DNA from: Bacillota bacterium
Lineage (GTDB): Bacteria; Bacillota_I; Bacilli_A; RF39; UBA660
Assembly: GCA_015059445.1 (NCBI GenBank)
Contig: SVAK01000003.1
Location: 55,058-119,057, forward strand
Length of the DNA stretch: 64,000 bases
Reading direction: 5' to 3'
The notes below the pieces were generated by a model. It searched no databases. It saw nothing but the letters and a program-made list of their open reading frames with translations, and was not told the DNA's origin. Below are positions 3,682-33,715 of this stretch, in pieces. Both the position numbers and the translations under genes were made by a program. Every line of letters begins with the position of its first letter. Position 1 is the stretch's first letter.

Positions 3682-3706
3682 AAAAAAATCCTGGAAGGAT
3701 TTATTT
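3682..3706. terminator. Bidirectional terminator between convergent genes
   Basis: Stem AAATCCT(3686-3692)/AGGATTT(3696-3702) with loop GGA, an A-run upstream and a T-run downstream. Confidence 0.6.
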
Positions 3707-4210
3707 GTTAAATTTAACAGTAATATACATTTCTTTGTCATATAATTCTTGAACGCTTCTAATAATTGAATTCGCTTTTTCATTATTGTGATCAGAAGAT
3801 GCAACAACAATACTAATTGTATTATCTTTAATTTTTACAAAAGCATTTAATTTAAATTTTTCATTAATTAATTCTTTAATTTTATTTTCATTAGCAGTAG
3901 AATCGTTTAATTTTTGCATGTTTTCATAAGCCGCATTTTTTTCTTCTATTGTACTTTCGCCATCTAATAGAATATCTTGATATTCCTCCATTAAAGTTTG
4001 TTTTTCTTCATCTTTTTCTACTTCCAAGGAAACTAGAATATCTGATTCAGTTATTTCAATTACTTCATTAGTATTATTATTTTCTTCAGTTTTTAATACT
4101 TGAGCAACCTCATCATCGATACTGACATAGTAAATTCCCAAAATTAATATTAAAGAAAATAGAGTTATAAACCACAAATTTTGTTTATTTATCATTAAAT
4201 CTCTCCTCAT
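3701..4210 (-). CDS. Hypothetical membrane-anchored acidic protein
   Basis: 169 aa. There is an N-terminal TM helix (WFITLFSLILILGIYYV), then a Glu-rich linker and a C-terminal beta-rich domain. It is divergent from the ABC exporter. Function unknown. Confidence 0.5.
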   Translation of the reverse strand: MRRDLMINKQNLWFITLFSLILILGIYYVSIDDEVAQVLKTEENNNTNEVIEITESDILVSLEVEKDEEKQTLMEEYQDILLDGESTIEEKNAAYENMQKLNDSTANENKIKELINEKFKLNAFVKIKDNTISIVVASSDHNNEKANSIIRSVQELYDKEMYITVKFNK

Positions 4211-4324
4211 AGCTATTAAATACTATGAATTTTATTTTAAAAAATAACTTTTTTGATAAAAAATAATAAATAAAAAAGGAAATGGGATTGTAAGTGACGA
4301 ATATTAATAGTGAAGGGAGGAAGA

Positions 4325-6379
4325 ATGAAAAATTTAAAGGCTATCATTCAAAGAGATTTGAAAGATTGTGGTGTATGTTGTATGCAGTGGATAATAAAAT
4401 ATTATGATGGTTATATCTCTTTAGAAAAATTAAGGGAAGATACTTTTACTGATATCAATGGTACAAGCGCTTATCATATTGTTAATGCTTTTAAAAAGTG
4501 GGGATTTGATTCTTCGGGGGTTTTGGAGCATGACATAAATAGCAGTAAGTTAAACTTTCCTTTAATTGCACATTTAGTTCTTGATAATGGTTTAGAGCAT
4601 TTTGTGGTAGTTAAATATGTTGTGAAAAATACTGTATATATTATGGATCCAGGTATTGGACATACTAAAACGAATATTACAAAATTCACTAAATTATTTA
4701 CAGGTCATATTATTGAAGCATTGCCTAGAGAAAAAATTATTAAAATGGATCATGAACTTTCTATAAATGAATTATTTTTAAATATAGTAAATAAGGAAAA
4801 GCTTCTCATTGCAAAAATAATTGTCACTAGTATTTTGTGGACTATTTTATTAATTGTTTGTAGTTATTATCTTAAAGTTGGTAGTATTTTAATAGAGCAA
4901 GATGCTGGAATATTAAAGTATACAGTTATTTCTTTTGGATTACTCACAGGACTCAAAGTATTTGTTTTATATGTAAGAGAATATTATGAAAATCATTTAA
5001 GTAATTTAGTTGATGTTTATATTTATCCAGAGTTTTTAAGACATTTGTTTTACCTTCCTTTAAAAGTAGTAAAAAGTAGAACAACTGGGGAAATAATTAC
5101 AAGAATTAGTGAACTTTCTAATATTAAGAGTTTGTTTTCTGATATTTTTGTATCATATTTTCTAGATTCTATAATGGTTATCATTTCTATAGTTATTTTA
5201 TTTATAATTAATAAAGACTTATTATTTATTCTACTTGCATGTTTATTACTTTATATAGTATGTGGAATAATTATAAGTAAAATTACGTATAAAAAAGTTT
5301 TGAAAAATATTTGCTATCAAACAGAATTTAATAGTATGATAGTTGAAAAAATTGATATGTTTGAGAGCATTAAAAATTTAAATGTTTGTAAAATTATATT
5401 AAGTAAAATAGAAAGTAGTTTATCTCAATATTTGCTTAATAATTATGAATTTAGTAGTTTTTTTAATATTGCTAATCTAGTTAAAGATTTTATTTTAGAA
5501 ATTTGTTTTTTCTTAATTAATTCATATGGATTTTGGTTAGTCTTGGATGGTAGTATAACGATGGTAAATTTATTTACTTTTAATATAATTCTTTCTTATT
5601 GTGTCGACCCGGTTAAAAATATTGTTAACTTATTACCAAAGTATAATTATATAAAAGCGTCGTTTTCTAAAATTACAGAATTTATTAATATTGAAGAGGA
5701 AAAAATTTCAGATGAAGAAAGTATTATGAAAGGAGATATCATATTTAAAGATGTTAGTTATTCTTACAATGATTACTTGTATGTCTTGGATAAAATTAAT
5801 TTTAAAATAAAAGAGGGCAGTCATGTTTTATTAAATGGTCCATCTGGGTGTGGTAAAAGTACAATATGTAAAATTATTTATGGAATAAATGAAGAATTCA
5901 GCGGTGATGTTTATGTCGGGAATAATAATTTTAAGGATATTAATTTAAGTACTATTAGAAGTAGTATTTTATATATTTCTCAAAATGAAGAATTATTTAC
6001 TGGTTCAATTAGGGAAAATATATTAATTGATAGAGAAATAAGCGAAGAAAAGTTTTTTGATATATGTAAAATATGTGAGATTGATGAGATTATTAGTAAA
6101 AAAGAAATGCGTTTTGATGCGCTGGTGGAGCCATCTTCTAAAAATATCTCAGGAGGTGAAAAACAAAGATTAATTTTAGCAAGAGGGTTGCTTAAGGATG
6201 CTAGTATATTAATCTTAGATGAAGCTTTATCTGAAGTTGATTATAAATTAGAAAGCAAAATAATTAAAAAAATTAAGGAATATTTTAAAGACAAAACAAT
6301 TATTTATATTTCTCATAAAAATCAAACGAAGAACTTTAATAATATTATTGAGTTGGGAGTTGATAATGAAAAGCTATAA
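4325..6379 (+). CDS. Bacteriocin-processing ABC exporter (N-terminal C39 peptidase + 6-TM domain + ABC ATPase)
   Basis: The C39 motifs are QRDLKDCG (catalytic Cys), LIAHLV...LEHFVVV (catalytic His) and IMDPGIG. Walker A is GPSGCGKST, the signature is ISGGEKQRLILAR, and Walker B is ILILDEA. The ATG at 4325 follows a GGGAGG RBS; the track's 4310 is a GTG alternative. Confidence 0.9.
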   Translation: MKNLKAIIQRDLKDCGVCCMQWIIKYYDGYISLEKLREDTFTDINGTSAYHIVNAFKKWGFDSSGVLEHDINSSKLNFPLIAHLVLDNGLEHFVVVKYVVKNTVYIMDPGIGHTKTNITKFTKLFTGHIIEALPREKIIKMDHELSINELFLNIVNKEKLLIAKIIVTSILWTILLIVCSYYLKVGSILIEQDAGILKYTVISFGLLTGLKVFVLYVREYYENHLSNLVDVYIYPEFLRHLFYLPLKVVKSRTTGEIITRISELSNIKSLFSDIFVSYFLDSIMVIISIVILFIINKDLLFILLACLLLYIVCGIIISKITYKKVLKNICYQTEFNSMIVEKIDMFESIKNLNVCKIILSKIESSLSQYLLNNYEFSSFFNIANLVKDFILEICFFLINSYGFWLVLDGSITMVNLFTFNIILSYCVDPVKNIVNLLPKYNYIKASFSKITEFINIEEEKISDEESIMKGDIIFKDVSYSYNDYLYVLDKINFKIKEGSHVLLNGPSGCGKSTICKIIYGINEEFSGDVYVGNNNFKDINLSTIRSSILYISQNEELFTGSIRENILIDREISEEKFFDICKICEIDEIISKKEMRFDALVEPSSKNISGGEKQRLILARGLLKDASILILDEALSEVDYKLESKIIKKIKEYFKDKTIIYISHKNQTKNFNNIIELGVDNEKL

Positions 6380-6779
6380 AATAAATTATCATAGATTACA
6401 AAATTTATTTCAAATAAAATATTATATTGTGGTAATAATTATAGTCTGTTTACTAACTTTCTTAATAATCATTTCTTGTTTTATAAATGTATATCAAATA
6501 AGCAGTTTTTACGGAATTTATAATGATAATGTATTGAAAATAAAAATAAATAATAAACTCTCTGATATTTTAAAAAATAATCAATATATTGAATATAATA
6601 ATCAAAAAACGACTTATAAGATTTTACAATTCGGGGAATATGAAATAATTAATAATGAAATATATCAAGAAGTAGATATGACTATAGATGGTAATTTTGT
6701 AAATAATGAAGTTGGATTGGTGAAATTTTATTATAACAAACAAAAAATCATAGAATATATTTTGGAATTATTTAAGTAG
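6367..6779 (+). CDS. Small single-TM accessory/immunity-like protein of the bacteriocin locus
   Basis: 137 aa counted from the ATG at 6367, which overlaps the exporter stop. It has one N-terminal TM helix (IVVIIIVCLLTFLIIISCF) and lies between the exporter and the peptide genes. Confidence 0.45.
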
Positions 6780-6792
6780 AGGAGGTAATAGA

Positions 6793-6939
6793 ATGAAAAG
6801 ATTAAATGATGAAGAAATGATAGAAGTGCAAGGAGGAGCATTTAGTTATAAAGCATTATTAGGACTGGTAGGTGCAGGCATTGTGTTCTTAATTGGAGTT
6901 ATAGATGGATTAATAAATCCTAGAAAGTGTAATAGTTAG
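6793..6939 (+). CDS. Double-glycine-leader bacteriocin-like prepeptide (48 aa)
   Basis: The GGAGG RBS is 7 nt upstream. The product is MKRLNDEEMIEVQGG|AFSYKALLGLVGAGIVFLIGVIDGLINPRKCNS. The leader has hydrophobics at -4, -7 and -12 and EE at -8/-9. The mature part is Gly-rich with GxxxG motifs. The gene is shorter than 60 aa, so it is absent from the ORF track. Confidence 0.75.
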   Translation: MKRLNDEEMIEVQGGAFSYKALLGLVGAGIVFLIGVIDGLINPRKCNS

Positions 6940-6947
6940 GAGGTAAT

Positions 6948-7109
6948 ATGTTAAATAATGAAGAACTTATAAAGGTAAGAGGTGGCGGTATTACAGCAAC
7001 ACTTCTTAATTCTTTATCGAGGCTTATGGAAACATTGTTAAATTTGGGTCAATTAGTTGGTTCATCTTTAAGACGCTCTTTTTCTAAAAAGACTTGTAAG
7101 CTACAGTAA
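6948..7109 (+). CDS. Second double-glycine-leader bacteriocin-like prepeptide (53 aa)
   Basis: The AGGAGG RBS is 6 nt upstream. The product is MLNNEELIKVRGG|GITATLLNSLSRLMETLLNLGQLVGSSLRRSFSKKTCKLQ. The leader is paralogous to the first peptide's. The mature part is a cationic, amphipathic, helix-like region with a single Cys. Confidence 0.7.
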   Translation: MLNNEELIKVRGGGITATLLNSLSRLMETLLNLGQLVGSSLRRSFSKKTCKLQ

Positions 7110-7113
7110 GATA

Positions 7114-7150
7114 TAAAAAAATATCAGTTTTTAACTGATATTTTTTTATT
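7114..7150. terminator. Rho-independent terminator closing the peptide operon
   Basis: An A-run, then stem ATATCAGTT(7121-7129)/AACTGATAT(7133-7141), then TTTTTTT. Confidence 0.7.
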
Positions 7151-7248
7151 TGCGGCCACATAACCAATCTATAGAGATTTTAAGTTTGGTATATATTTAA
7201 CAATGTAAATTAAGTTAACTTAAAATTTACAAACATTTGGCTTTTTTG

Positions 7249-7277
7249 TTGTCAAATTTTTAAGCAAGTGGTATAAT
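7249..7277 (+). promoter_or_regulatory. Promoter for rpsU-yqeY
   Basis: TTGTCA (7249-7254), a 17-nt spacer, then TATAAT (7272-7277). Confidence 0.5.
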
Positions 7278-17732: not shown

Positions 17733-17809
17733 GTTCTTGTAGCTCAGTTGGATAGAGCGTATGCCTCCGACGCATAAGGTCGAGAGTTCGATTCTCTCCA
17801 AGAACACCA
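17733..17809 (+). tRNA. tRNA-Arg (anticodon CCG)
   Basis: The acceptor stem GTTCTTG/CAAGAAC is followed by the D-arm GCTCAGTTGGATAGAGC. The anticodon stem TATGC/GCATA carries the loop CT-CCG-AC. The T-arm is GAGAGTTCGATTCTCTC, followed by an encoded CCA. A TTATAAT -10 box lies 10 nt upstream. Confidence 0.9.
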
Positions 17810-24566: not shown

Positions 24567-27437
24567 ATGTACGCACCATTAAAAGTTACAACTGATTATA
24601 CATTACTAAATAGTTTAATTAAAGTTAATGATTTAATTAATTTTTGTGTGAAACAAAATATCAAAAGTTGTGCGATATGTGATACTAATTTATTTGGAAG
24701 TATAGAATTTTATAAGCTTGCCAAAAAAAGTAATATTAAACCCATTTTAGGATTAGAAATAAAATTTAATAATAAAACTGTGTATTTGTATGCAGAAAAT
24801 TATGATGGGTATAAAAACATGTTAAAAATAAATACAATTGTATGTGAAAGAGATATTAGTATTTTAGAGTTAGAAAGATTAAGTAAAAATGTTTTAGCAA
24901 TTATTCCATATGGAAGTATAGATTTATATGATAATTTAAAATTTATAAATAATTTATATATTGGATATGAAAATAAAAATGAATTACAAAGTAGTTTATT
25001 GAAAAGTAGTAATGTTGTTTTTGTAAATGATATTAAAGCTTTTTCTTTTGAAGATTTAGAATATATTAAATATTTAGATATTATAGCAGAGAGAGATAAT
25101 CAAGAATATATTCATAATTATTTTGACAATCAAAATTTATCAAAGTTTGATTTAGATAAAATAGAAGAAGTAGTAAATCTTCTTAATATAGAAATGCCTA
25201 CTAATACAAGATATATTCCAAAATATAATAAAGAATTTGATTCATTTCAAACTCTTTATAATTTATGTGTTAAAGGTTTAGATAAAAGACTTAAGGGGAA
25301 TGTTTCAAAAGAATATAGTGAACGATTAAAATATGAATTATCTGTTATTAAAAAAATGGGATTTGTAGATTATTTCTTAATTGTTTATGATTATGTTTTA
25401 TATGCTAAGAAGAACAATATTTTTGTCGGACCTGGAAGAGGGAGTGCTGCTGGGTCTTTAGTAAGTTACGTAATTGGAATTACTGATATTGATCCAATAA
25501 AATATAATTTATTATTTGAAAGATTTTTAAATTATGAAAGAGTTACCATGCCTGATATTGATATAGACTTTGATAATACAAAAAGAGATGATGTTATTAA
25601 TTATGTTAAAAATAAATATGGTAAAGATAATGTATCTGGCGGTATGACTTTTGCTACTTTGAAGACAAGGTTGGTTTTAAGGGAATTAGGTAAGATTTTA
25701 AAAATAGATGAAAGATTATTAAATAAATTTTTAAAAGTATTAAATAAAGATGTAAATTTAAAAAATAATTTAGAACAAAAAATAGTTAAAGATTATTTGA
25801 ATAGTTATTCTGAATTAAAAAAATTATATCATATTAGTTTAAAATTAGAAGGATTGAAGAGAAATATTAGCACTCATGCTGCAGGTATTGTTATTGGTGA
25901 TAGGGCACTTGATGAAATAATTCCTATGTATAAAAAGGGTGATGTTTATTTAACTGGTGTAGGAATGGAACACTTAGAAGATTTAGGATTATTAAAGATG
26001 GATTTTTTAGCCTTAAAAAATCTAAGTATAATTAGTAATGTTGTAAGTAGGATCCCAAATTTTAATGTTAATAAAATTTCACTAGAAGATAAGGAAGTAT
26101 ATGAATTATTTGGAAAGGCAGAAACTGATGGGATTTTTCAATTTGAAACTAATGCTTTTAAAAATATGTTAGTTAAATATAAACCAAAGAATTTTTCTGA
26201 GTTAGTAGCAAGTGTAGCTTTAGTAAGACCCGGGCCAAGTAGAGAGTTAGAAACTTACATTAAAAGAAAAAATGGATTAGAAAAAATAACTTATTATCAT
26301 GAATCTTTGGAAGATATTTTAAAAGAAACGTATGGTGTAATTGTTTATCAAGAACAAGTTATTAATATTTTAGTTAAGATGGCTAAATTTAGTTATGCAG
26401 AAGCTGATAATATAAGAAGAGCTATGTCTAAGAAAAAAGAAGATATTGTATTAAAAGAAAAGGATAATTTTATTAAAAGAAGTATGTTAAATGGTTATGA
26501 AGAAAAATTAGCAGAAAATGTTTTTAATCATATCTTAAAATTTGCATCTTATGGATTCAATAAGGCTCATTCTGTTTCTTATGCAATTATTTCTTATCAG
26601 ATGGCATATTTAAAAGTTCATTATAAATCACTATTTATTTTTGAACTTTTAAATAATTCTTTAGGTAGTGAAGAAAAAGTTAAAATATATTTAAATGAAT
26701 TAAAAAAAGATAAATTAAAAATTTATCCAGTTAGTATTAATTATTCCGATTATAATTTTATTTTAAAGAATAATGTTGTATTTTTACCATTTAAGTTAAT
26801 TAAAAATATGAAAAATGATTTAATTAAACATTTAATAGAAGAAAGAAAAAATAATGGTTCATTTAAAGATGTTTTTGATTTTTTTAAAAGAACTGTTAAA
26901 AATACAACAAAAAATGAATATACAATGTTAATTAATGCTGGAGTATTAAACGAATTTCAATTAGGTGTAAAAACTTTAATTAATAATTTAGATGTTTTAA
27001 TAAATTATGGTAACTTATATAATGATTTAGGAGAATATGCATTGATTCCAGAGCTTGAAATAGTAGAGGAATATGATAAAGATACTTTAAGACAAAATGA
27101 GATTAATAGTTATGGATTTTTTATAAGTAACCATCCTGCTAGTAAATACAGTAACAAAGAGGTCATAAAATTAGAAAATATTAAGGAAAATGTGTTTAAA
27201 AATATAGTGTGTTATGTTATGGTAGATAATGTAAAGAAGATTAAAACTAAGAAGAATGAAGATATGGCTTTTATTAGCGCTAGTGATGAAACTGATAAGT
27301 GTGATTTTACAGTGTTTCCAAAAAATTTTTACTTGTTACAAAATATAAGTAAAAATGATATGATAAAAGTATGGGGAAGTGTGACCAAAAGATTTGACAA
27401 ATATAGTGTTATTGTAAATAATATTTTAGAGGAGTAA
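24567..27437 (+). CDS. dnaE: DNA polymerase III alpha subunit DnaE, with a degenerate PHP domain
   Basis: It has the Pol C-family catalytic motif MPDIDIDFD, fingers/thumb regions and a C-terminal OB fold. The N-terminal PHP region lacks the HxH/DH metal ligands: it reads YAPLKVTTDYT and ICDTN. Confidence 0.85.
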   Translation: MYAPLKVTTDYTLLNSLIKVNDLINFCVKQNIKSCAICDTNLFGSIEFYKLAKKSNIKPILGLEIKFNNKTVYLYAENYDGYKNMLKINTIVCERDISILELERLSKNVLAIIPYGSIDLYDNLKFINNLYIGYENKNELQSSLLKSSNVVFVNDIKAFSFEDLEYIKYLDIIAERDNQEYIHNYFDNQNLSKFDLDKIEEVVNLLNIEMPTNTRYIPKYNKEFDSFQTLYNLCVKGLDKRLKGNVSKEYSERLKYELSVIKKMGFVDYFLIVYDYVLYAKKNNIFVGPGRGSAAGSLVSYVIGITDIDPIKYNLLFERFLNYERVTMPDIDIDFDNTKRDDVINYVKNKYGKDNVSGGMTFATLKTRLVLRELGKILKIDERLLNKFLKVLNKDVNLKNNLEQKIVKDYLNSYSELKKLYHISLKLEGLKRNISTHAAGIVIGDRALDEIIPMYKKGDVYLTGVGMEHLEDLGLLKMDFLALKNLSIISNVVSRIPNFNVNKISLEDKEVYELFGKAETDGIFQFETNAFKNMLVKYKPKNFSELVASVALVRPGPSRELETYIKRKNGLEKITYYHESLEDILKETYGVIVYQEQVINILVKMAKFSYAEADNIRRAMSKKKEDIVLKEKDNFIKRSMLNGYEEKLAENVFNHILKFASYGFNKAHSVSYAIISYQMAYLKVHYKSLFIFELLNNSLGSEEKVKIYLNELKKDKLKIYPVSINYSDYNFILKNNVVFLPFKLIKNMKNDLIKHLIEERKNNGSFKDVFDFFKRTVKNTTKNEYTMLINAGVLNEFQLGVKTLINNLDVLINYGNLYNDLGEYALIPELEIVEEYDKDTLRQNEINSYGFFISNHPASKYSNKEVIKLENIKENVFKNIVCYVMVDNVKKIKTKKNEDMAFISASDETDKCDFTVFPKNFYLLQNISKNDMIKVWGSVTKRFDKYSVIVNNILEE

Positions 27438-27442
27438 ACAAC

Positions 27443-30400
27443 ATGGATGAATTAAAAAGATTTTTAAATAGTATAAATTTTGAATACACTGATGATTTAC
27501 AGGATACTGAAATAATGAAAGTAGTTTTAAACAGAGAAACTAAAGTATATAATGTTTATTTAAAAAGTAAATATGTTTTAAGTTATGAACTAGTAACTGA
27601 TCTTTTTAATCATGCTAAAAGGGGTATAAATGGTAAAGATAAATGTTATTTAGAAATGGTTTATGACAATATAACTACTGAAGATTTAGAAGCTTATATA
27701 AAATCAATTTTAAATGCTGTTGTTTTTGAACATCCATCTTTAATGGGACTGGAAAATAGTTTTACAAAAGAAGAAGATAATACGATTTATTTAGAAGTAG
27801 GTAGTAATGCAGAAGTTAAAGCTTTAGAAAATTACCAAGATGAAATAATTACTCATTTAAGAAATTATGGTTTAGGAGATTTTCTTATTAATATATCAAT
27901 TAATGAACAAATTAAAGAAGAAATAAAGAAAGAAATCGAAGCATCAAAAGAAGTTAAACCAGAAAAGAAAGAAGATAGTCCAGTAATATTTGGGTTTCAT
28001 AAAGATGGTGAAGTAACTCAAATTAAAAATATTATGGGTGAACAAAAAAATATTATTATTGAAGGTTATGTTTTTGGAATCGATAATAGTGAAAGAAAAG
28101 GACAAAAAGCTACTGCTTATATTATAAATCTAAAAGTAAGTGATAAGACTGATAGTTTTTTAGTTAAATTTGTTAGATTTAAAGAGGAAGAATATAAACA
28201 AATATTAAAAGGCTTAAAAGTCGGGAAATGGTTTAGAATCGTTGGTAATGTGGAAATGGATAACTATTTAAGACAAATGGTTTTAAATGGACGAAGTATT
28301 GAAGCAATAAAGAGTAAAGATATAGCAGTTACTGATGAAGAAGAAGAAAAAAGAGTAGAACTTCATGTCCATACTATGATGAGTGCAATGGATGGTGTAA
28401 TAGAGGCTAAAAAGTTAGTAAAACATGCTAAAAGTTTGGGGCACAAAGCAGTGGCTGTCACTGATCATGATTGTTTACAATCTTATCCAGAATTATATCA
28501 TGCAGTATGTGATATAAATTATGGAATTGAAAATGAAGAAGATAAGTTTAAAGTTATTTATGGTGCTGAAATGAGTATTGTGAATAATGAAAATGATTTA
28601 ATTCACAATCTAAGAGATTATGATTTATTAGAGACTGAATTTGTTGTATTTGATACCGAAACAACAGGATTTACACCCTATACAGATCAAATAATTGAAA
28701 TTGGTGCTGTTAAAATTAAAAATGGGGAAATAACTGATAGATTTGATGAACTTATTAATCCGGGACGAAAGTTGCCAGAAAAAATAATTGAACTTACTAA
28801 TATAACTGATGAAATGTTAGAAGATAAAGATACGGAAGAAAATGTTACGAAAAGATTTATGGAATTTATTGGTGATTTACCGATGGTTGCTCATAACGCC
28901 AAATTTGATATCGGTTTTATAAGTGCTGCTTATAATAAATACAATTTAGGTGAATTTAGTAATACTGTTCTTGATACAATGAGTATGGCCAGAATGCTTT
29001 ATCCAAACTGGAAAAATCATAAATTATCAACACTTGTTAAACAATTAGAAGTTCCTTGGGATGAGGATGCACATCATAGAGCTGATTATGATAGTGAGGG
29101 AACTGCAATAGGATTTTATAAAATGTGTAAAACATTATATAATCGCAATATTGAAACTACTAAAAAATTGTATGATTCAGTAGATTTAGAAGAATTATTA
29201 AAATTTAGTAGACCATTCCATATGTCTGTTTTAGTTAAAAATAGAACGGGATTAAAAAATTTATTTAAAATAATTAGTTTTGCAAATACAAAATATTTAT
29301 TTAAAGGTGATCAACCGAAACTACCAAGAGACGAGCTTAATGCACATCGCGAAGGAATGCTTTTTGGTTCTGGATGTGTCAATGGTGAAATATTTGAAGC
29401 TGCTTTTACTAAAGAAGATGAAGAATTAGCTAAAATGATGCAATATTATGATTATATTGAAGTTCAGCCACCAGAAGTTTATTCTTATCTTGTTGATATG
29501 GAATCTAGTCCAATTAAATCTTTAGCGGATATTTATACTCATATTAAGAAAATTGTTAAAGTAGCAGAGGAAGCTGGAGTAATGGTTTGCGCTACTAGTG
29601 ATGCCCATCATTTAACAAGAGAAGATAAAATATATCGTGATATTATTGCTAATCAAAGATTTAATGGTAAGTTGCATCCTCTCAATAAAAGAGGCATAAC
29701 TATTCCAGACATGCATTTTTATACTACACGAGAAATGCTTGATGCATTTTCATTCTTAGGAGAAGAAAAAGCTAAAGAAATAGTAGTAATTAATCCAAAT
29801 AAAATTGCGGATCAATGTGAAATTGTTGAAGTTATTATTGAAACTGGTGGTGTTCCATTCTCGCCAAAAATTGAAAATTCAGCACAAATTGTTGAAGACA
29901 TGGTTTATAACAAAGCAAAAGATTGGTATGGAGATCCGCTTCCCGATAATATTCGAGATAGAATTGAACAAGAATTAAAAGGGATAATTGGTGGTGGATT
30001 TGATGTTATTTATCTAATTGCCCAAAAACTGGTTAAAAAGAGTAATGACGATGGGTTCTTAGTTGGTTCTCGTGGTTCAGTTGGATCATCTTTTGTTGCT
30101 ACTATGATGGGAATTACCGAAGTTAATCCGCTTCCTTCCCATTATCGTTGTCCAAATTGTAAACATAGTATCTTTAAAAATGATGATGGCGAAGACCTAG
30201 CAATTGAATTTGGTATAGGTTTTGATCTTCCGGATAAAGATTGTCCAAAGTGTGGGGTTAAAATGATTAAAGATGGTGAAGACATGCCATTTGCTACATT
30301 CTTGGGGTTTAATGCTGATAAAGTTCCGGATATTGACTTAAACTTTTCTGATTTAAATCAAGCAGCAGCCCACGAATACACAAAAGTATTATTCGGCGAA

Positions 30401-31768
30401 GATAATGTATATCGTGCTGGTACTATTGGTACGGTTGCAGAAAAAACTGCTTTTGGTTTCGTAAAAGGTTATTGTGAAGATAAAAATATTATCATGCGTG
30501 GAATAGAAGTTGAAAGGCTAGCTGCAGGTTGCGTTGGTGTTAAAAGGACAACTGGACAACACCCTGGTGGAATAGTAGTTATTCCAGGATATATGGACGT
30601 TTATGATTTTACACCATATCAATATCCTGCTGAAGATGTTGATGCTGCATGGAGAACAACACACTTTGATTACCATGCAATTGATCAAGATGTATTAAAA
30701 TTAGATATCTTAGGTCATACCGATCCAACTCAATTACGGATGTTACAAGATTTAACTGGAATTGATGTTAAAACAGTACCATTTGATGATAAAGAAACTA
30801 TGGGATTATTCTTATCGCCAGAACCTTTAGGAGTTACTAAAGAACAAATAATGAATGATACAGGGACTTTAGGAGTTCCAGAATTTGGTACTAACTTTAC
30901 AATTGGAATGCTAAGAGATACTAAACCAACTACTTTTGGTGAACTTATCAAAATATCTGGTTTATCTCATGGAACTGATGTATGGCTCGGTAATGCTCAA
31001 GAATTAATTCGAAAAGGAGTTGTTCCTTTTAAAGAGGTTATTGGATGTCGGGACGACATCATGGTATTCTTAATGCAAGCTGGTATGGAACCTTTAAAAG
31101 CCTTTAAAATTATGGAATTTGTTAGAAAAGGTAAGGCAAGTAAGGATCCAGAGGGATGGTCAAAGCACAAAGCTGCTATGGAAGAAGCTGGTATACCAGA
31201 TTGGTATATTGGCTCATGTGAAAAAATTAAGTACATGTTCCCTAAAGCCCATGCTTCAGCATATGTTATGAGTGCTTTTAGAATTGCTTGGTTTAAAGTT
31301 CATCGACCTGCCGAATATTATGCTTCATATTTTTCAACAAGGTTTGATGATTTTGAAATAGAAACAATGATTAAAGGATATGATGCAATTAAAGCAAGGA
31401 TTAATGATATAATTGGTAAGGGATATGAAGCTACAAGTAAAGAAACATCACTTTTAGAAACATTGAAGCTAGCTCTTGAAGCTACTGCTAGAGGTTTCAA
31501 GTTTGGTAATATAGATGTAGAAAGAAGCCTTGCTAAAAATTATGTAATTGATGAAGATGGCAAAACTTTAATATCACCATTTAGAACACTGGATGGTTTA
31601 GGAGATGCCGTTGCAAATCAAATAGTAGAAGAAAGAAATAAGAAATCATATTATTGTATTGAAGATTTTCAAAACAGAGGTAAAGTAAATGCTTCTACTA
31701 TGGAAAAGTTAAGAAATCTAGGTGTATTTAAAGGAATGCCAGAATCAGCTCAACTAAGTTTATTTTAA
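27443..31768 (+). CDS. polC: DNA polymerase III PolC-type
   Basis: 1441 aa. It has a PHP domain (LHVHTMMSAMDG), an inserted DEDDh exonuclease (FVVFDTETTGF) and a Zn module (CPNCKH...CPKCG). Confidence 0.95.
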   Translation: MDELKRFLNSINFEYTDDLQDTEIMKVVLNRETKVYNVYLKSKYVLSYELVTDLFNHAKRGINGKDKCYLEMVYDNITTEDLEAYIKSILNAVVFEHPSLMGLENSFTKEEDNTIYLEVGSNAEVKALENYQDEIITHLRNYGLGDFLINISINEQIKEEIKKEIEASKEVKPEKKEDSPVIFGFHKDGEVTQIKNIMGEQKNIIIEGYVFGIDNSERKGQKATAYIINLKVSDKTDSFLVKFVRFKEEEYKQILKGLKVGKWFRIVGNVEMDNYLRQMVLNGRSIEAIKSKDIAVTDEEEEKRVELHVHTMMSAMDGVIEAKKLVKHAKSLGHKAVAVTDHDCLQSYPELYHAVCDINYGIENEEDKFKVIYGAEMSIVNNENDLIHNLRDYDLLETEFVVFDTETTGFTPYTDQIIEIGAVKIKNGEITDRFDELINPGRKLPEKIIELTNITDEMLEDKDTEENVTKRFMEFIGDLPMVAHNAKFDIGFISAAYNKYNLGEFSNTVLDTMSMARMLYPNWKNHKLSTLVKQLEVPWDEDAHHRADYDSEGTAIGFYKMCKTLYNRNIETTKKLYDSVDLEELLKFSRPFHMSVLVKNRTGLKNLFKIISFANTKYLFKGDQPKLPRDELNAHREGMLFGSGCVNGEIFEAAFTKEDEELAKMMQYYDYIEVQPPEVYSYLVDMESSPIKSLADIYTHIKKIVKVAEEAGVMVCATSDAHHLTREDKIYRDIIANQRFNGKLHPLNKRGITIPDMHFYTTREMLDAFSFLGEEKAKEIVVINPNKIADQCEIVEVIIETGGVPFSPKIENSAQIVEDMVYNKAKDWYGDPLPDNIRDRIEQELKGIIGGGFDVIYLIAQKLVKKSNDDGFLVGSRGSVGSSFVATMMGITEVNPLPSHYRCPNCKHSIFKNDDGEDLAIEFGIGFDLPDKDCPKCGVKMIKDGEDMPFATFLGFNADKVPDIDLNFSDLNQAAAHEYTKVLFGEDNVYRAGTIGTVAEKTAFGFVKGYCEDKNIIMRGIEVERLAAGCVGVKRTTGQHPGGIVVIPGYMDVYDFTPYQYPAEDVDAAWRTTHFDYHAIDQDVLKLDILGHTDPTQLRMLQDLTGIDVKTVPFDDKETMGLFLSPEPLGVTKEQIMNDTGTLGVPEFGTNFTIGMLRDTKPTTFGELIKISGLSHGTDVWLGNAQELIRKGVVPFKEVIGCRDDIMVFLMQAGMEPLKAFKIMEFVRKGKASKDPEGWSKHKAAMEEAGIPDWYIGSCEKIKYMFPKAHASAYVMSAFRIAWFKVHRPAEYYASYFSTRFDDFEIETMIKGYDAIKARINDIIGKGYEATSKETSLLETLKLALEATARGFKFGNIDVERSLAKNYVIDEDGKTLISPFRTLDGLGDAVANQIVEERNKKSYYCIEDFQNRGKVNASTMEKLRNLGVFKGMPESAQLSLF

Positions 31769-31928: not shown

Positions 31929-32079
31929 AGTAAATTTGCTAGTAAGTAACAAATATTAAAACTAAAGTGTTTAAATTTAGAAAACAAATTGACTGAATTT
32001 AATTTATGCATGTACTAGAACAAAGTAAATATGCATAAATAATTATAAAAAATATTTGCATAATAATACTGGTGATTAT

Positions 32080-32838
32080 ATGAATTATCAAACTGCAATA
32101 TCTTTTGGATTAGTACATATACCTGTACTTATGAATAGCGCTATTAAAAATAATGATATATCTTTTAATATGTTACATAAAAAGTGTGGTGAGAAATTAG
32201 AATATATTAGATATTGTCCCAGCTGTAAAGAAAAAGTTAAAAATGCTGAGATTGAAAAAGGATATGAGTATACTGACGATAATTTTATAACGTTTACTGA
32301 AGATGATTTTGATAAATTAAAAAGTGAAAATGATAAAGTAATAGAAATTATTTCTTTTGTAGATATTTCTGACATAGATCCAATTTATTATGATAAGAGT
32401 TATACATTAACTCCTAATAAAAGCACTAAATCATTTAATTTATTTAAAGAAGCTTTAAGGAAAAGTAAAAAGGTAGCAATTGCGAAAACATATATACGTA
32501 ATAAAGCTTATTATGTTGTAATTAGATTTGGCTATGAAAATATAATCATGGATACACTTTATTATGAAGAAGAAATAAAAATGCAAAAAGAAAAAACTAA
32601 AAAGGAATTTAATGATACTGAATTGAAAACAGCTATACAACTAATTGATGCTATGAGCGATGAATTCAGGCCAGAAGAATATATTGATGAATATCAAACT
32701 AGACTTAGAAAAGCTATTGATAAAAAAATAAATGGTAAAGAAATTAAGCAGTATAAAAAGAAAAAGCAAAGGAGTATTAGCGATTTAATGACAGCGCTAG
32801 AAGAATCTTTGAGGGAACAGAAAAATGGAAAAAAATGA
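32080..32838 (+). CDS. ku: Ku protein (NHEJ DNA end-binding)
   Basis: Counted from the ATG at 32080, the product begins MNYQTAISFGLVHIPVLMNSA..., which is a Ku core. There is a Lys-rich C-terminal tail. Confidence 0.85.
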   Translation: MNYQTAISFGLVHIPVLMNSAIKNNDISFNMLHKKCGEKLEYIRYCPSCKEKVKNAEIEKGYEYTDDNFITFTEDDFDKLKSENDKVIEIISFVDISDIDPIYYDKSYTLTPNKSTKSFNLFKEALRKSKKVAIAKTYIRNKAYYVVIRFGYENIIMDTLYYEEEIKMQKEKTKKEFNDTELKTAIQLIDAMSDEFRPEEYIDEYQTRLRKAIDKKINGKEIKQYKKKKQRSISDLMTALEESLREQKNGKK

Positions 32839-33715
32839 TTTCTTAAAATTAAAACCAATGCTTTTAGACGAAATATTCAAACCATTTAACGATAAAGATT
32901 ATTTGTTTGAAATTAAATTTGATGGTATTAGATCCTTAATATTTATTGATAAGGAAAAAATATTTATAAAAAGTAGGAGAAATATTATATTAAATGATAC
33001 TTTTCCAGAATTATTAGACATTAAAAATATAAGTAACGAAACATGTATTTTTGATGGTGAAATTGTTTTACTAGAAAATGGTAAACCATCTTTTTTTAAA
33101 TTACAAGAAAGAACTAGACTTAAAAATAAATATCGTATTAATGAGATGAAAGAAAATAATCCTGTTGCTTTTATATGTTTTGATATTTTATATAAGAATA
33201 AAGATTTAACTAAATTACCACTTCTTGATAGAAAGAAAATATTAGATAAATACAATGATAATAATATTTTTATTAAATCAAAATATTTTGAAGAGAAAGG
33301 TAATGATTTATTTAAATTTGTAAAGAAAGAAAATTTGGAAGGCATTATAGCGAAGAAAAAGATGAGTAAATATTATTATAATATTAGAACTAAAGAATGG
33401 ATTAAAATAAAAAATTTTAAAGAAGAGGAATTTTATATTTCGGGATTTATTATAACTAAAAGTGATAATGTAGTCAGTGCATTATTATCAGAAAAAATTA
33501 ATAATAAATATGTTTTTGTGGGAAAAATACTTTTTAGTCATAAGAATAAAGATTATGAAAAAGTTATAAATTCAGATTCTGTTAAAAATTATTTAGAAAA
33601 TTGTGAAGATAATGCAATTTTTATTAAACCAATCTATAAATTAAAAGTTAACTATATGGAAAGAACTAAAAATAATATGTTAAGGCAACCATTTGTTAAT
33701 AAAGATAATAAATAA
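32825..33715 (+). CDS. ligD: ATP-dependent DNA ligase (ligase-domain-only LigD)
   Basis: It has motif I EIKFDGIR (KxDGxR) and an OB-fold C-terminus. 296 aa, overlapping the ku stop. Confidence 0.8.
   Translation: MEKNDFLKLKPMLLDEIFKPFNDKDYLFEIKFDGIRSLIFIDKEKIFIKSRRNIILNDTFPELLDIKNISNETCIFDGEIVLLENGKPSFFKLQERTRLKNKYRINEMKENNPVAFICFDILYKNKDLTKLPLLDRKKILDKYNDNNIFIKSKYFEEKGNDLFKFVKKENLEGIIAKKKMSKYYYNIRTKEWIKIKNFKEEEFYISGFIITKSDNVVSALLSEKINNKYVFVGKILFSHKNKDYEKVINSDSVKNYLENCEDNAIFIKPIYKLKVNYMERTKNNMLRQPFVNKDNK

Follow-up and report, generated by a model that had tools for sequence, protein, structure and literature searches.

A conserved operon encoding a candidate class IIb-like peptide pair in uncultured gut Bacilli

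Peptide genes, exporter and promoter of the operon

The sequence analysed here is a 64-kb stretch of contig SVAK01000003.1 (Bacillota bacterium, assembly GCA_015059445.1; 25.7% G+C), hereafter the window, which was searched on both strands or in all six frames where stated. Two short adjacent genes at 6793–7109, encoding peptides of 48 and 53 amino acids (aa), had been put forward in an original prediction as a candidate two-peptide class II bacteriocin, and both open reading frames (ORFs) were found exactly as described there. They close a four-gene operon (4275–7153) that encodes an exporter, a 137-aa protein, peptide A and peptide B, with a sigma-H-type promoter on its 5' side and a terminator on its 3' side. 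The precursor of peptide A (6793–6939, forward strand, 48 aa) consists of the leader MKRLNDEEMIEVQGG (6793–6837) and the mature region AFSYKALLGLVGAGIVFLIGVIDGLINPRKCNS (AFSYK...NPRKCNS, 6838–6936; 33 aa, charge +2, 3420.1 Da). Peptide B (6948–7109, forward strand, 53 aa) follows after an intergenic gap of 8 nt, with the leader MLNNEELIKVRGG (6948–6986) and the mature region GITATLLNSLSRLMETLLNLGQLVGSSLRRSFSKKTCKLQ (GITAT...KKTCKLQ, 6987–7106; 40 aa, charge +5, 4379.2 Da). Both genes have the strong Shine–Dalgarno (SD) sequence attributed to them: AGGAGG at 6780–6785 lies 7 nt before the ATG of peptide A, and a second AGGAGG at 6938–6943 overlaps the stop codon of peptide A and stands 4 nt before the ATG of peptide B. 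The leaders are of the canonical double-glycine (GG) type, and the register predicted for them, with hydrophobic residues at −4, −7 and −12 and two glutamates at −8/−9, holds for both (V-4, M-7, EE-8/-9 and L-12 in peptide A; V-4, L-7, EE-8/-9 and L-12 in peptide B). Using a regular expression for double-glycine leaders on six frames of the 64 kb, peptides A and B were the sole free-standing ORFs matched.

In essence, mature peptide A is a single hydrophobic helix that continues into DGLINPRKCNS, with a grand average of hydropathy (GRAVY) of 1.0; mature peptide B forms a strongly amphipathic helix ending in a cationic tail. Exactly one cysteine is present in each mature peptide, near the C-terminus as had been noted. 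GxxxG motifs are also present, but there is only one true motif in each peptide (G35xxxG39 in peptide A and G34xxxG38 in peptide B) and not several. In a profile–profile comparison of the two families the alignment was restricted to the leader, the mature regions being unrelated. Measured against six orthologous loci, dN/dS is 0.15–0.50 for peptide A and 0.11–0.44 for peptide B, with synonymous sites near saturation. These sequence comparisons indicate that peptides A and B are real genes kept by purifying selection. The exact peptide A sequence occurs in the JGI, Logan and ENA gene calls and has no NCBI call, while the NCBI entry for the 137-aa neighbour reads ‘hypothetical protein E7161_02110 [Firmicutes bacterium]’; this pattern is what would be expected if the deposited metagenome-assembled genome (MAG) had no calls for the peptide genes.

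The first gene of the operon (4325–6379, forward strand) encodes a 684-aa peptidase-containing ATP-binding cassette (ABC) transporter (PCAT) with C39 peptidase, transmembrane and ATPase domains. Its ATG at 4325 is preceded by the SD sequence AAGGGAGG and agrees with the 684-aa gene calls of homologous contigs. The Pfam matches are Peptidase_C39 (4.9e-30), ABC_membrane (1.3e-26) and ABC_tran (2.9e-26), and the best solved relatives are PCAT1 (4ry2, 2e-89) and ComA (8hf7). All features of a PCAT were found, namely an N-terminal C39 domain with Cys/His/Asp, a six-helix transmembrane domain and an ATPase with Walker and signature motifs, and the motifs DCG, HFVV and DPG of the Cys/His/Asp triad align with PCAT1. 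As the protein scores below the cut-offs of all NCBIfam equivalogs (TIGR01193 and related), it is a divergent PCAT member. The original prediction was right to associate a C39-peptidase ABC exporter with the peptides, which share its operon, yet it had placed the exporter gene immediately upstream, and the gene for the 137-aa protein (6366–6779, forward strand) intervenes between it and peptide A.

The start of the 137-aa gene overlaps the end of the exporter gene by 14 nt. A Pfam family scan gave no match for its product. The AlphaFold2 model (11 homologues, predicted local distance difference test (pLDDT) score 84) has an N-terminal membrane helix, six strands and a short helix, and the predicted fold matches membrane-fusion (adaptor) proteins in its external six-stranded beta-barrel. 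On the basis of this model, we read the protein as a minimal adaptor that would consist of an anchor and a beta-barrel, lacking the lipoyl and hairpin domains of the classical accessory proteins of ~450 aa. We do not read it as an immunity protein, a second role as such being conceivable. As a separate observation, the PCAT model of the Mycoplasma ‘Mbov_0121 family’ gives the exporter 303 bits against a cut-off of 500. The ‘MAG1140 family’ model, numbered consecutively with that of Mbov_0121 (NF045998 and NF045999), gives the 137-aa protein 16 bits against a cut-off of 35 and is matched by 3 of the 11 homologues. To judge from these scores, the exporter and the 137-aa protein may have distant relatives in a gene pair of unknown role that is conserved in Mollicutes.

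The sigma-H-type promoter (4275–4304, forward strand) has a −35 element AAAGGAAAT (4275–4283), a 12-nt spacer and a −10 element GACGAATAT (4296–4304). The sigma-H consensus is RNAGGAWWW / RNNGAATWW (PMC8510167). We applied it as a −35 of RNAGGAWWW and a −10 of RNNGAATWW, separated by 11–12 nt and located upstream of a transcription unit, and positions 4275–4304 match in full. With the stricter form of the sigma-H consensus, RWAGGANNT-N14-HGAAT, they are the one site that matches anywhere on the two strands of the 64 kb, where 0.36 are expected. The same motif is the sole match in each of six homologous loci (L001, L004, L007, L008, L014 and L022) and lies about 48 nt 5' of the exporter ATG. 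As L014 is a distant relative (exporter 43% identical) with a different upstream gene, yet keeps the motif in position, the conservation of the promoter represents a phylogenetic footprint and not the shared ancestry of neutral sequence. We infer that the operon uses a sigma-H-type promoter. The −10 part GACGAATAT also resembles the streptococcal ComX box TACGAATA.

At the other end, a 17-bp A/U-rich hairpin followed by a U run forms the intrinsic terminator (7113–7153, forward strand). Its fold has an energy of −17.9 kcal/mol (z = −5.75), and none of 200 shuffled sequences was as stable. A consensus terminator scan gave no call at 7113–7153, the stem having too few G-C pairs for its rule. The neighbouring gene rpsU has its own near-consensus promoter, TTGTCA-17-TATAAT, at 7249–7277.

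Conservation and inheritance of the module

Orthologues of the peptides were found in at least 14 other contigs or MAGs, with identities of 33–88% for peptide A and 31–94% for peptide B, including 17 close homologues of the latter. Across 13 peptide A sequences, the GG, F32, G35xxxG39 and C46 are invariant and P43 is nearly so; in the 17 peptide B sequences, the GG, N21, G34xxxG38 and C50 are among the positions that never vary. An exhaustive profile search with peptide B retrieved, at E ≤ 1e-3, 311 clusters, each represented at 50% identity and almost all with a length of 50–57 aa. G34, G38 and C50 are at least 90% conserved among the best 150 family members.

The significance that the original prediction had attached to the cysteines is borne out by this wider family. 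The single cysteine is kept in 13/13 peptide A and 17/17 peptide B sequences across distant homologues, and 145 of the best 150 peptide B family members have a cysteine after the GG site, the last one lying 0–4 residues from the C-terminus in 143 of these. The five cysteine-less exceptions are three truncated or frameshifted fragments and two sequences ending just before the cysteine position. From the alignments, the spacing between GxxxG and cysteine is 12 residues in peptide B (130/143) and 7 residues in peptide A (13/13). The two genes are adjacent in every locus examined, down to 31–40% identity. Taken as a whole, the comparisons show conservation of the pairing as well as of the helix-contact motifs and the cysteines.

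Two read-through ORFs from distant members, P0134 (102 aa) and P0148 (101 aa), join A-like and B-like units in one frame with the second leader as linker, and may be natural fusions or gene-calling artefacts. An AlphaFold2 model of P0134 (pLDDT 57.7) has both mature parts helical and carries no information on cysteine proximity.

The four-gene module recurs in uncultured Bacilli of gut and rumen. It occurs in metagenomic contigs and in MAGs labelled as uncultured Bacilli (goat rectum, rabbit and Hadza gut), as well as in Candidatus Coprovivens and an ‘uncultured Clostridium’. Searching metagenomes with a narrow peptide A alignment gained one extra locus. In the closer loci the module always lies between a divergent spoIIIAH-like gene and rpsU-yqeY-yabP-yqfD. 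L014 has the module at the same place, and so does L018 apart from one inserted gene; in these two loci the exporter is only 43% identical and YqeY 53–55%. The module lies elsewhere in L013, L016 and L017, the last of which has no adaptor gene. Among the five closer loci, peptide B is 73–85% identical, compared with 62–87% for YqeY and 62–79% for YqfD, and the faster-diverging members of the module are peptide A (51–73%), the exporter (60–73%) and the adaptor (42–70%).

Several observations concern the surroundings of the module. The spoIIIAH-like gene (3701–4210, reverse strand; Pfam SpoIIIAH, 3.5e-11) is an orphan, divergent from the operon and away from any spoIIIA operon, and it keeps its place beside the module even in L014 and L018 (37–40% identity). 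In these two loci only, a conserved secreted or membrane protein of ~150 aa is encoded between the spoIIIAH-like gene and the exporter (L014:1902–2354 and L018:2843–3292), with a weak match to T4SS_pilin (0.0034). In L009 (1–1660), 99.98% identity to L007 starts inside the 137-aa gene, and an unrelated membrane GT2 glycosyltransferase is encoded upstream on the other strand. To judge from the sequence, this junction would be either an assembly chimera or a deletion that lost the exporter and kept both peptide genes.

Interpretation of the peptide pair

Our favoured reading, which we hold to be probable with moderate confidence, is that the operon produces and secretes a membrane-active toxin of two peptides, similar to class IIb. 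The hallmarks of class IIb are tandem genes, GxxxG motifs, GG leaders and an ABC transporter (PMC5093712). The locus has the tandem genes, the GG leaders with a dedicated C39 exporter and a GxxxG motif in both peptides, and it has no linked immunity gene. The proposal of a candidate two-peptide bacteriocin thus keeps its main supports, but falls short on the immunity gene and on the curated models, whose cut-offs the window peptides do not reach.

On the favoured reading, transcription would start at the sigma-H-type promoter and end at the hairpin 3' of peptide B, and the tight coupling of the genes would supply the two precursors in near-equal amounts. Homology and fold suggest that the C39 domain of the exporter cleaves the leaders after Gly-Gly and that the transporter expels the mature peptides, probably aided by the 137-aa minimal membrane-fusion-like adaptor. 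The hydrophobic peptide A (33 aa) and the cationic amphipathic peptide B (40 aa) may then form parallel helices paired via their single GxxxG motifs, and the pair would insert into and permeabilise the target membrane, as proposed for lactococcin G-type bacteriocins. In such an arrangement the C-terminal cysteines would stand beside the cationic tails on the same side, probably adjacent to each other as an interchain disulfide or as paired thiols. We estimate that the 12 helical residues of peptide B would span ~18 Å, and that the three helical and four extended residues of peptide A, after its proline-interrupted end, would span ~17–18 Å. On this back-of-envelope reckoning, the two thiols would lie at a similar level. 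Whether peptides A and B form a disulfide-linked heterodimer is uncertain.

A number of results weigh against the toxin reading. The stretch from peptide B to the terminator or rpsU contains no ORF of at least 30 aa, leaving no adjacent immunity gene, and no immunity-like or conserved candidate gene flanks the module in the distant loci. The sole other small protein of the operon, of 137 aa, has a transport-adaptor fold. Since immunity genes are ‘invariably linked’ to class IIb structural genes (PMC5093712), a defining feature of the class is missing. The Pfam-annotated maps and family scans covering the window contained no immunity protein, histidine kinase, response regulator, modifying enzyme or thiol-disulfide oxidoreductase, and the same gene types were absent from the flanks of the distant loci. 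The window carries nrdD, and the hosts come from anaerobic gut and rumen habitats; together with the lack of a thiol-oxidising enzyme in the 64 kb, this makes a stable extracellular disulfide uncertain.

The protein-family models belong on the same side of the balance. Neither window peptide matches Pfam. Peptide A stays below threshold on the NCBIfam models NF038034 (lactococcin G-beta/enterocin 1071B; 20.9 vs a cut-off of 37) and TIGR03949 (lactobin A/cerein 7B; 11.9 vs 21.5), and peptide B has no NCBIfam match. NF038034 is matched weakly by all 13 peptide A homologues and TIGR03949 by 11 of the 13, two distant ones (from L014 and L015) passing its cut-off. Mature peptide A alone matches no bacteriocin model, and the similarity to class IIb models therefore resides in the leader and the glycine-rich start. 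Only minorities of the 150 peptide B relatives match class II models, and weakly. Where the original prediction had looked to bacteriocin models as a check, the outcome is thus divided: weak, leader-driven class IIb matches exist, with the window peptides under every curated cut-off. Profile searches of the PDB sequences gave no relative of the mature regions of either family, the sole match of the peptide A profile being the leader of CtA, the PCAT1 substrate. Cluster look-ups returned solely metagenomic members or entries named ‘hypothetical protein [Bacilli bacterium]’, and a literature search found no paper containing the sequence motifs of the peptide family. The peptide B family appears to be uncurated and, as far as could be seen, undescribed.

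The mode of inheritance is also unusual for a bacteriocin. Peptide B diverges at a pace close to that of its housekeeping neighbours, and the module stays between the spoIIIAH-like gene and rpsU down to an exporter identity of 43%. Neither peptide has a homologue on plasmids, and none of peptide A, the only one searched there, was found in viral contigs; a mobile-element origin was rejected on this ground. The comparisons indicate that the locus is largely vertically inherited and selectively maintained, unlike a mobile bacteriocin island. In summary, the locus departs from a textbook class IIb system in four ways: it lacks an adjacent immunity gene, it lacks quorum-sensing regulators, it is inherited vertically, and the window peptides score below the cut-offs of the curated models. 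The toxin reading is a sequence-based proposal.

These departures would be accommodated if the exported pair had a non-antibiotic, lineage-specific physiological role, for instance as a heterodimeric membrane or surface factor at stationary phase or the onset of sporulation, with the leader and exporter serving as its secretion route. The pair behaves like core genes, keeping the same site across deep divergence with peptide B identities (73–85%) next to those of YqeY (62–87%) and YqfD (62–79%). The dN/dS values of 0.1–0.5, the lack of a cis immunity gene or regulators, the sigma-H-type promoter, the sporulation neighbours (spoIIIAH-like, yabP and yqfD) and the absence of plasmid copies (A and B) and viral copies (A) are all consistent with such a role. 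However, it has no known precedent for a GG-leader peptide pair, and the GxxxG motifs, the combination of a cationic amphipathic with a hydrophobic helix and the length of 30–40 aa are traits of pore-forming two-peptide bacteriocins. The other contexts of the module in L013, L016 and L017 also argue against a strict tie to the sporulation neighbourhood. We consider a physiological role unlikely, though it deserves to be kept in mind. The lack of any single immunity gene after the pair would equally suit two independent one-peptide class II bacteriocins that share an exporter, as would their unrelated mature regions, and many loci elsewhere carry several independent GG peptides. The strict one-to-one adjacency in all loci down to 31–40% identity, read-through ORFs included, speaks against this idea, as do the 8-nt gap, the SD sequence overlapping the stop codon and the matched single GxxxG and C-terminal cysteine of the two peptides; independent action is in our view improbable.

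The original prediction had itself named ComC/BlpC-like pheromones with a histidine kinase and response regulator pair as an outcome that would speak against a bacteriocin, and no such genes were seen in the 64 kb. Pheromones of this type, with a ComA-like exporter and a kinase/regulator pair elsewhere, could draw on the exporter being equally similar to ComA and PCAT1, on the likeness of the −10 element GACGAATAT to the streptococcal ComX box TACGAATA, and on very weak ComC Pfam matches in 2 of 150 family members. Yet no histidine kinase or response regulator was found in the homologous loci examined either, the window peptides match neither ComC nor induction-factor models, and the known pheromones that induce competence or bacteriocins do not resemble mature products of 33 and 40 aa, one of which is in essence a transmembrane helix. 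A pheromone pair is very unlikely. We give still less credence to cysteine-modified precursors of ribosomally synthesised and post-translationally modified peptides (S-glycosylated glycocin, lanthipeptide, sactipeptide or similar). The invariant cysteine in the C-terminal region does recall S-glycosylated glycocins, and a glycosyltransferase gene adjoins the peptides in L009, but no operon or conserved neighbourhood of any locus encodes a modifying enzyme. The glycocin idea in particular was rejected: the L009 enzyme is a membrane GT2 protein with no counterpart in the window or in the sister loci, and its gene lies at the junction that interrupts the 137-aa gene.

Described systems, other window features and implications

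The locus has several features in common with the lactococcin G/enterocin 1071 and lactobin A/cerein 7B groups: tandem co-transcribed genes, GG leaders, a C39 ABC exporter, unmodified helical peptides of 30–40 aa each with a GxxxG motif, one cationic amphipathic partner with the other hydrophobic and glycine-rich, and weak profile similarity. The window peptides differ from these groups in scoring below the cut-offs, in mature regions without detectable homology, in the lack of an adjacent immunity gene and in the one invariant near-C-terminal cysteine of each peptide. In place of their HlyD/LcnD-family protein of ~450 aa, a 137-aa mini-adaptor is encoded here, and the structural genes lie 3' of the transporter genes in one operon that is syntenic and vertically inherited.

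ComX belongs to the sigma-H family. In Streptococcus pneumoniae it acts as the alternative sigma factor that transcribes cibABC, which encodes a two-peptide bacteriocin (PMC5295010). This bacteriocin, CibAB, is induced in competence and serves fratricide. Being chromosomal, species-wide and controlled by an alternative sigma factor, with no dedicated quorum-sensing pair (PMC5295010), CibAB is a precedent for the present candidate pair, the counterpart here being the sigma-H-type promoter. Unlike the present operon, cibABC includes the immunity gene cibC and its exporters are encoded elsewhere, and no sequence similarity was detected. The exporter has the architecture and catalytic motifs of PCAT1 from Clostridium thermocellum (2e-89), and the leader of peptide A aligns with that of CtA. 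PCAT1 is not known to need an accessory protein. ComA is partnered by a large ComB, whereas the partner here is a minimal beta-barrel protein translationally coupled to the exporter. The skf and sdp operons of Bacillus subtilis encode the cannibalism toxins, chromosomal peptides linked to the start of sporulation. The operon here is comparable in having a sigma-H-type promoter in a sporulation-capable lineage, but shows no similarity of sequence or architecture to skf and sdp, which encode their own immunity and modification. By these comparisons, the locus appears to belong to no described family.

Outside the operon, some further features of the window were recorded. Genes for Ku and an ATP-dependent DNA ligase (non-homologous end joining) are adjacent at 32056–33715, and at 24567–31768 a DnaE-type polymerase gene (956 aa) is followed 5 nt on by polC (1441 aa). 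Between fmt and a CDP-alcohol phosphatidyltransferase gene, positions 2325–2930 encode a protein of 201 aa that has an N-terminal membrane helix and matches no family; it is absent at that position in L007 and L008. An Rfam scan of positions 1–64000 at the gathering threshold gave a single tRNA (17733–17806) only, with no T-box or riboswitch despite the aminoacyl-tRNA synthetase genes in the window (the end of ileS, glyS and serS).

The lack of linked immunity and quorum-sensing genes, together with vertical inheritance at a conserved genomic site, suggests that the toxin may be wired into a stationary-phase or developmental programme, by analogy with CibAB fratricide under ComX or the cannibalism toxins of Bacillus. 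Carried to its full extent, this idea describes a heterodimeric toxin linked through its thiols, as a disulfide staple or a thiol pair. It would belong to the core genome throughout a clade of spore-forming, uncultured gut Bacilli, and sigma-H would switch it on at stationary phase, sporulation or competence for kin-directed cannibalism or fratricide, with immunity coming from the developmental state of the producer. We regard this extended proposal as a long shot, albeit one with a small chance of being right. If true, it would have no predecessor among class II bacteriocins as a covalent heterodimer, and developmental killing would be described for the first time outside Bacillus and Streptococcus. 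Several features of the locus are not described for class IIb systems, namely an obligatory cysteine in each peptide at a fixed distance from GxxxG, a minimal adaptor, the absence of linked immunity and an alternative-sigma-type promoter. The sources looked up for a few family members are almost all metagenomes, with no functional name; if active, the peptides would stand for a large uncharacterised two-peptide toxin family numbering 311 or more clusters at 50% identity. The mature peptides (33 and 40 aa) are short enough for direct synthesis. The locus bears on the covalent stapling of two-peptide bacteriocins, on how a producer may survive without a linked immunity gene, and on developmental killing in uncultured gut Bacilli related to Mollicutes and Erysipelotrichia.

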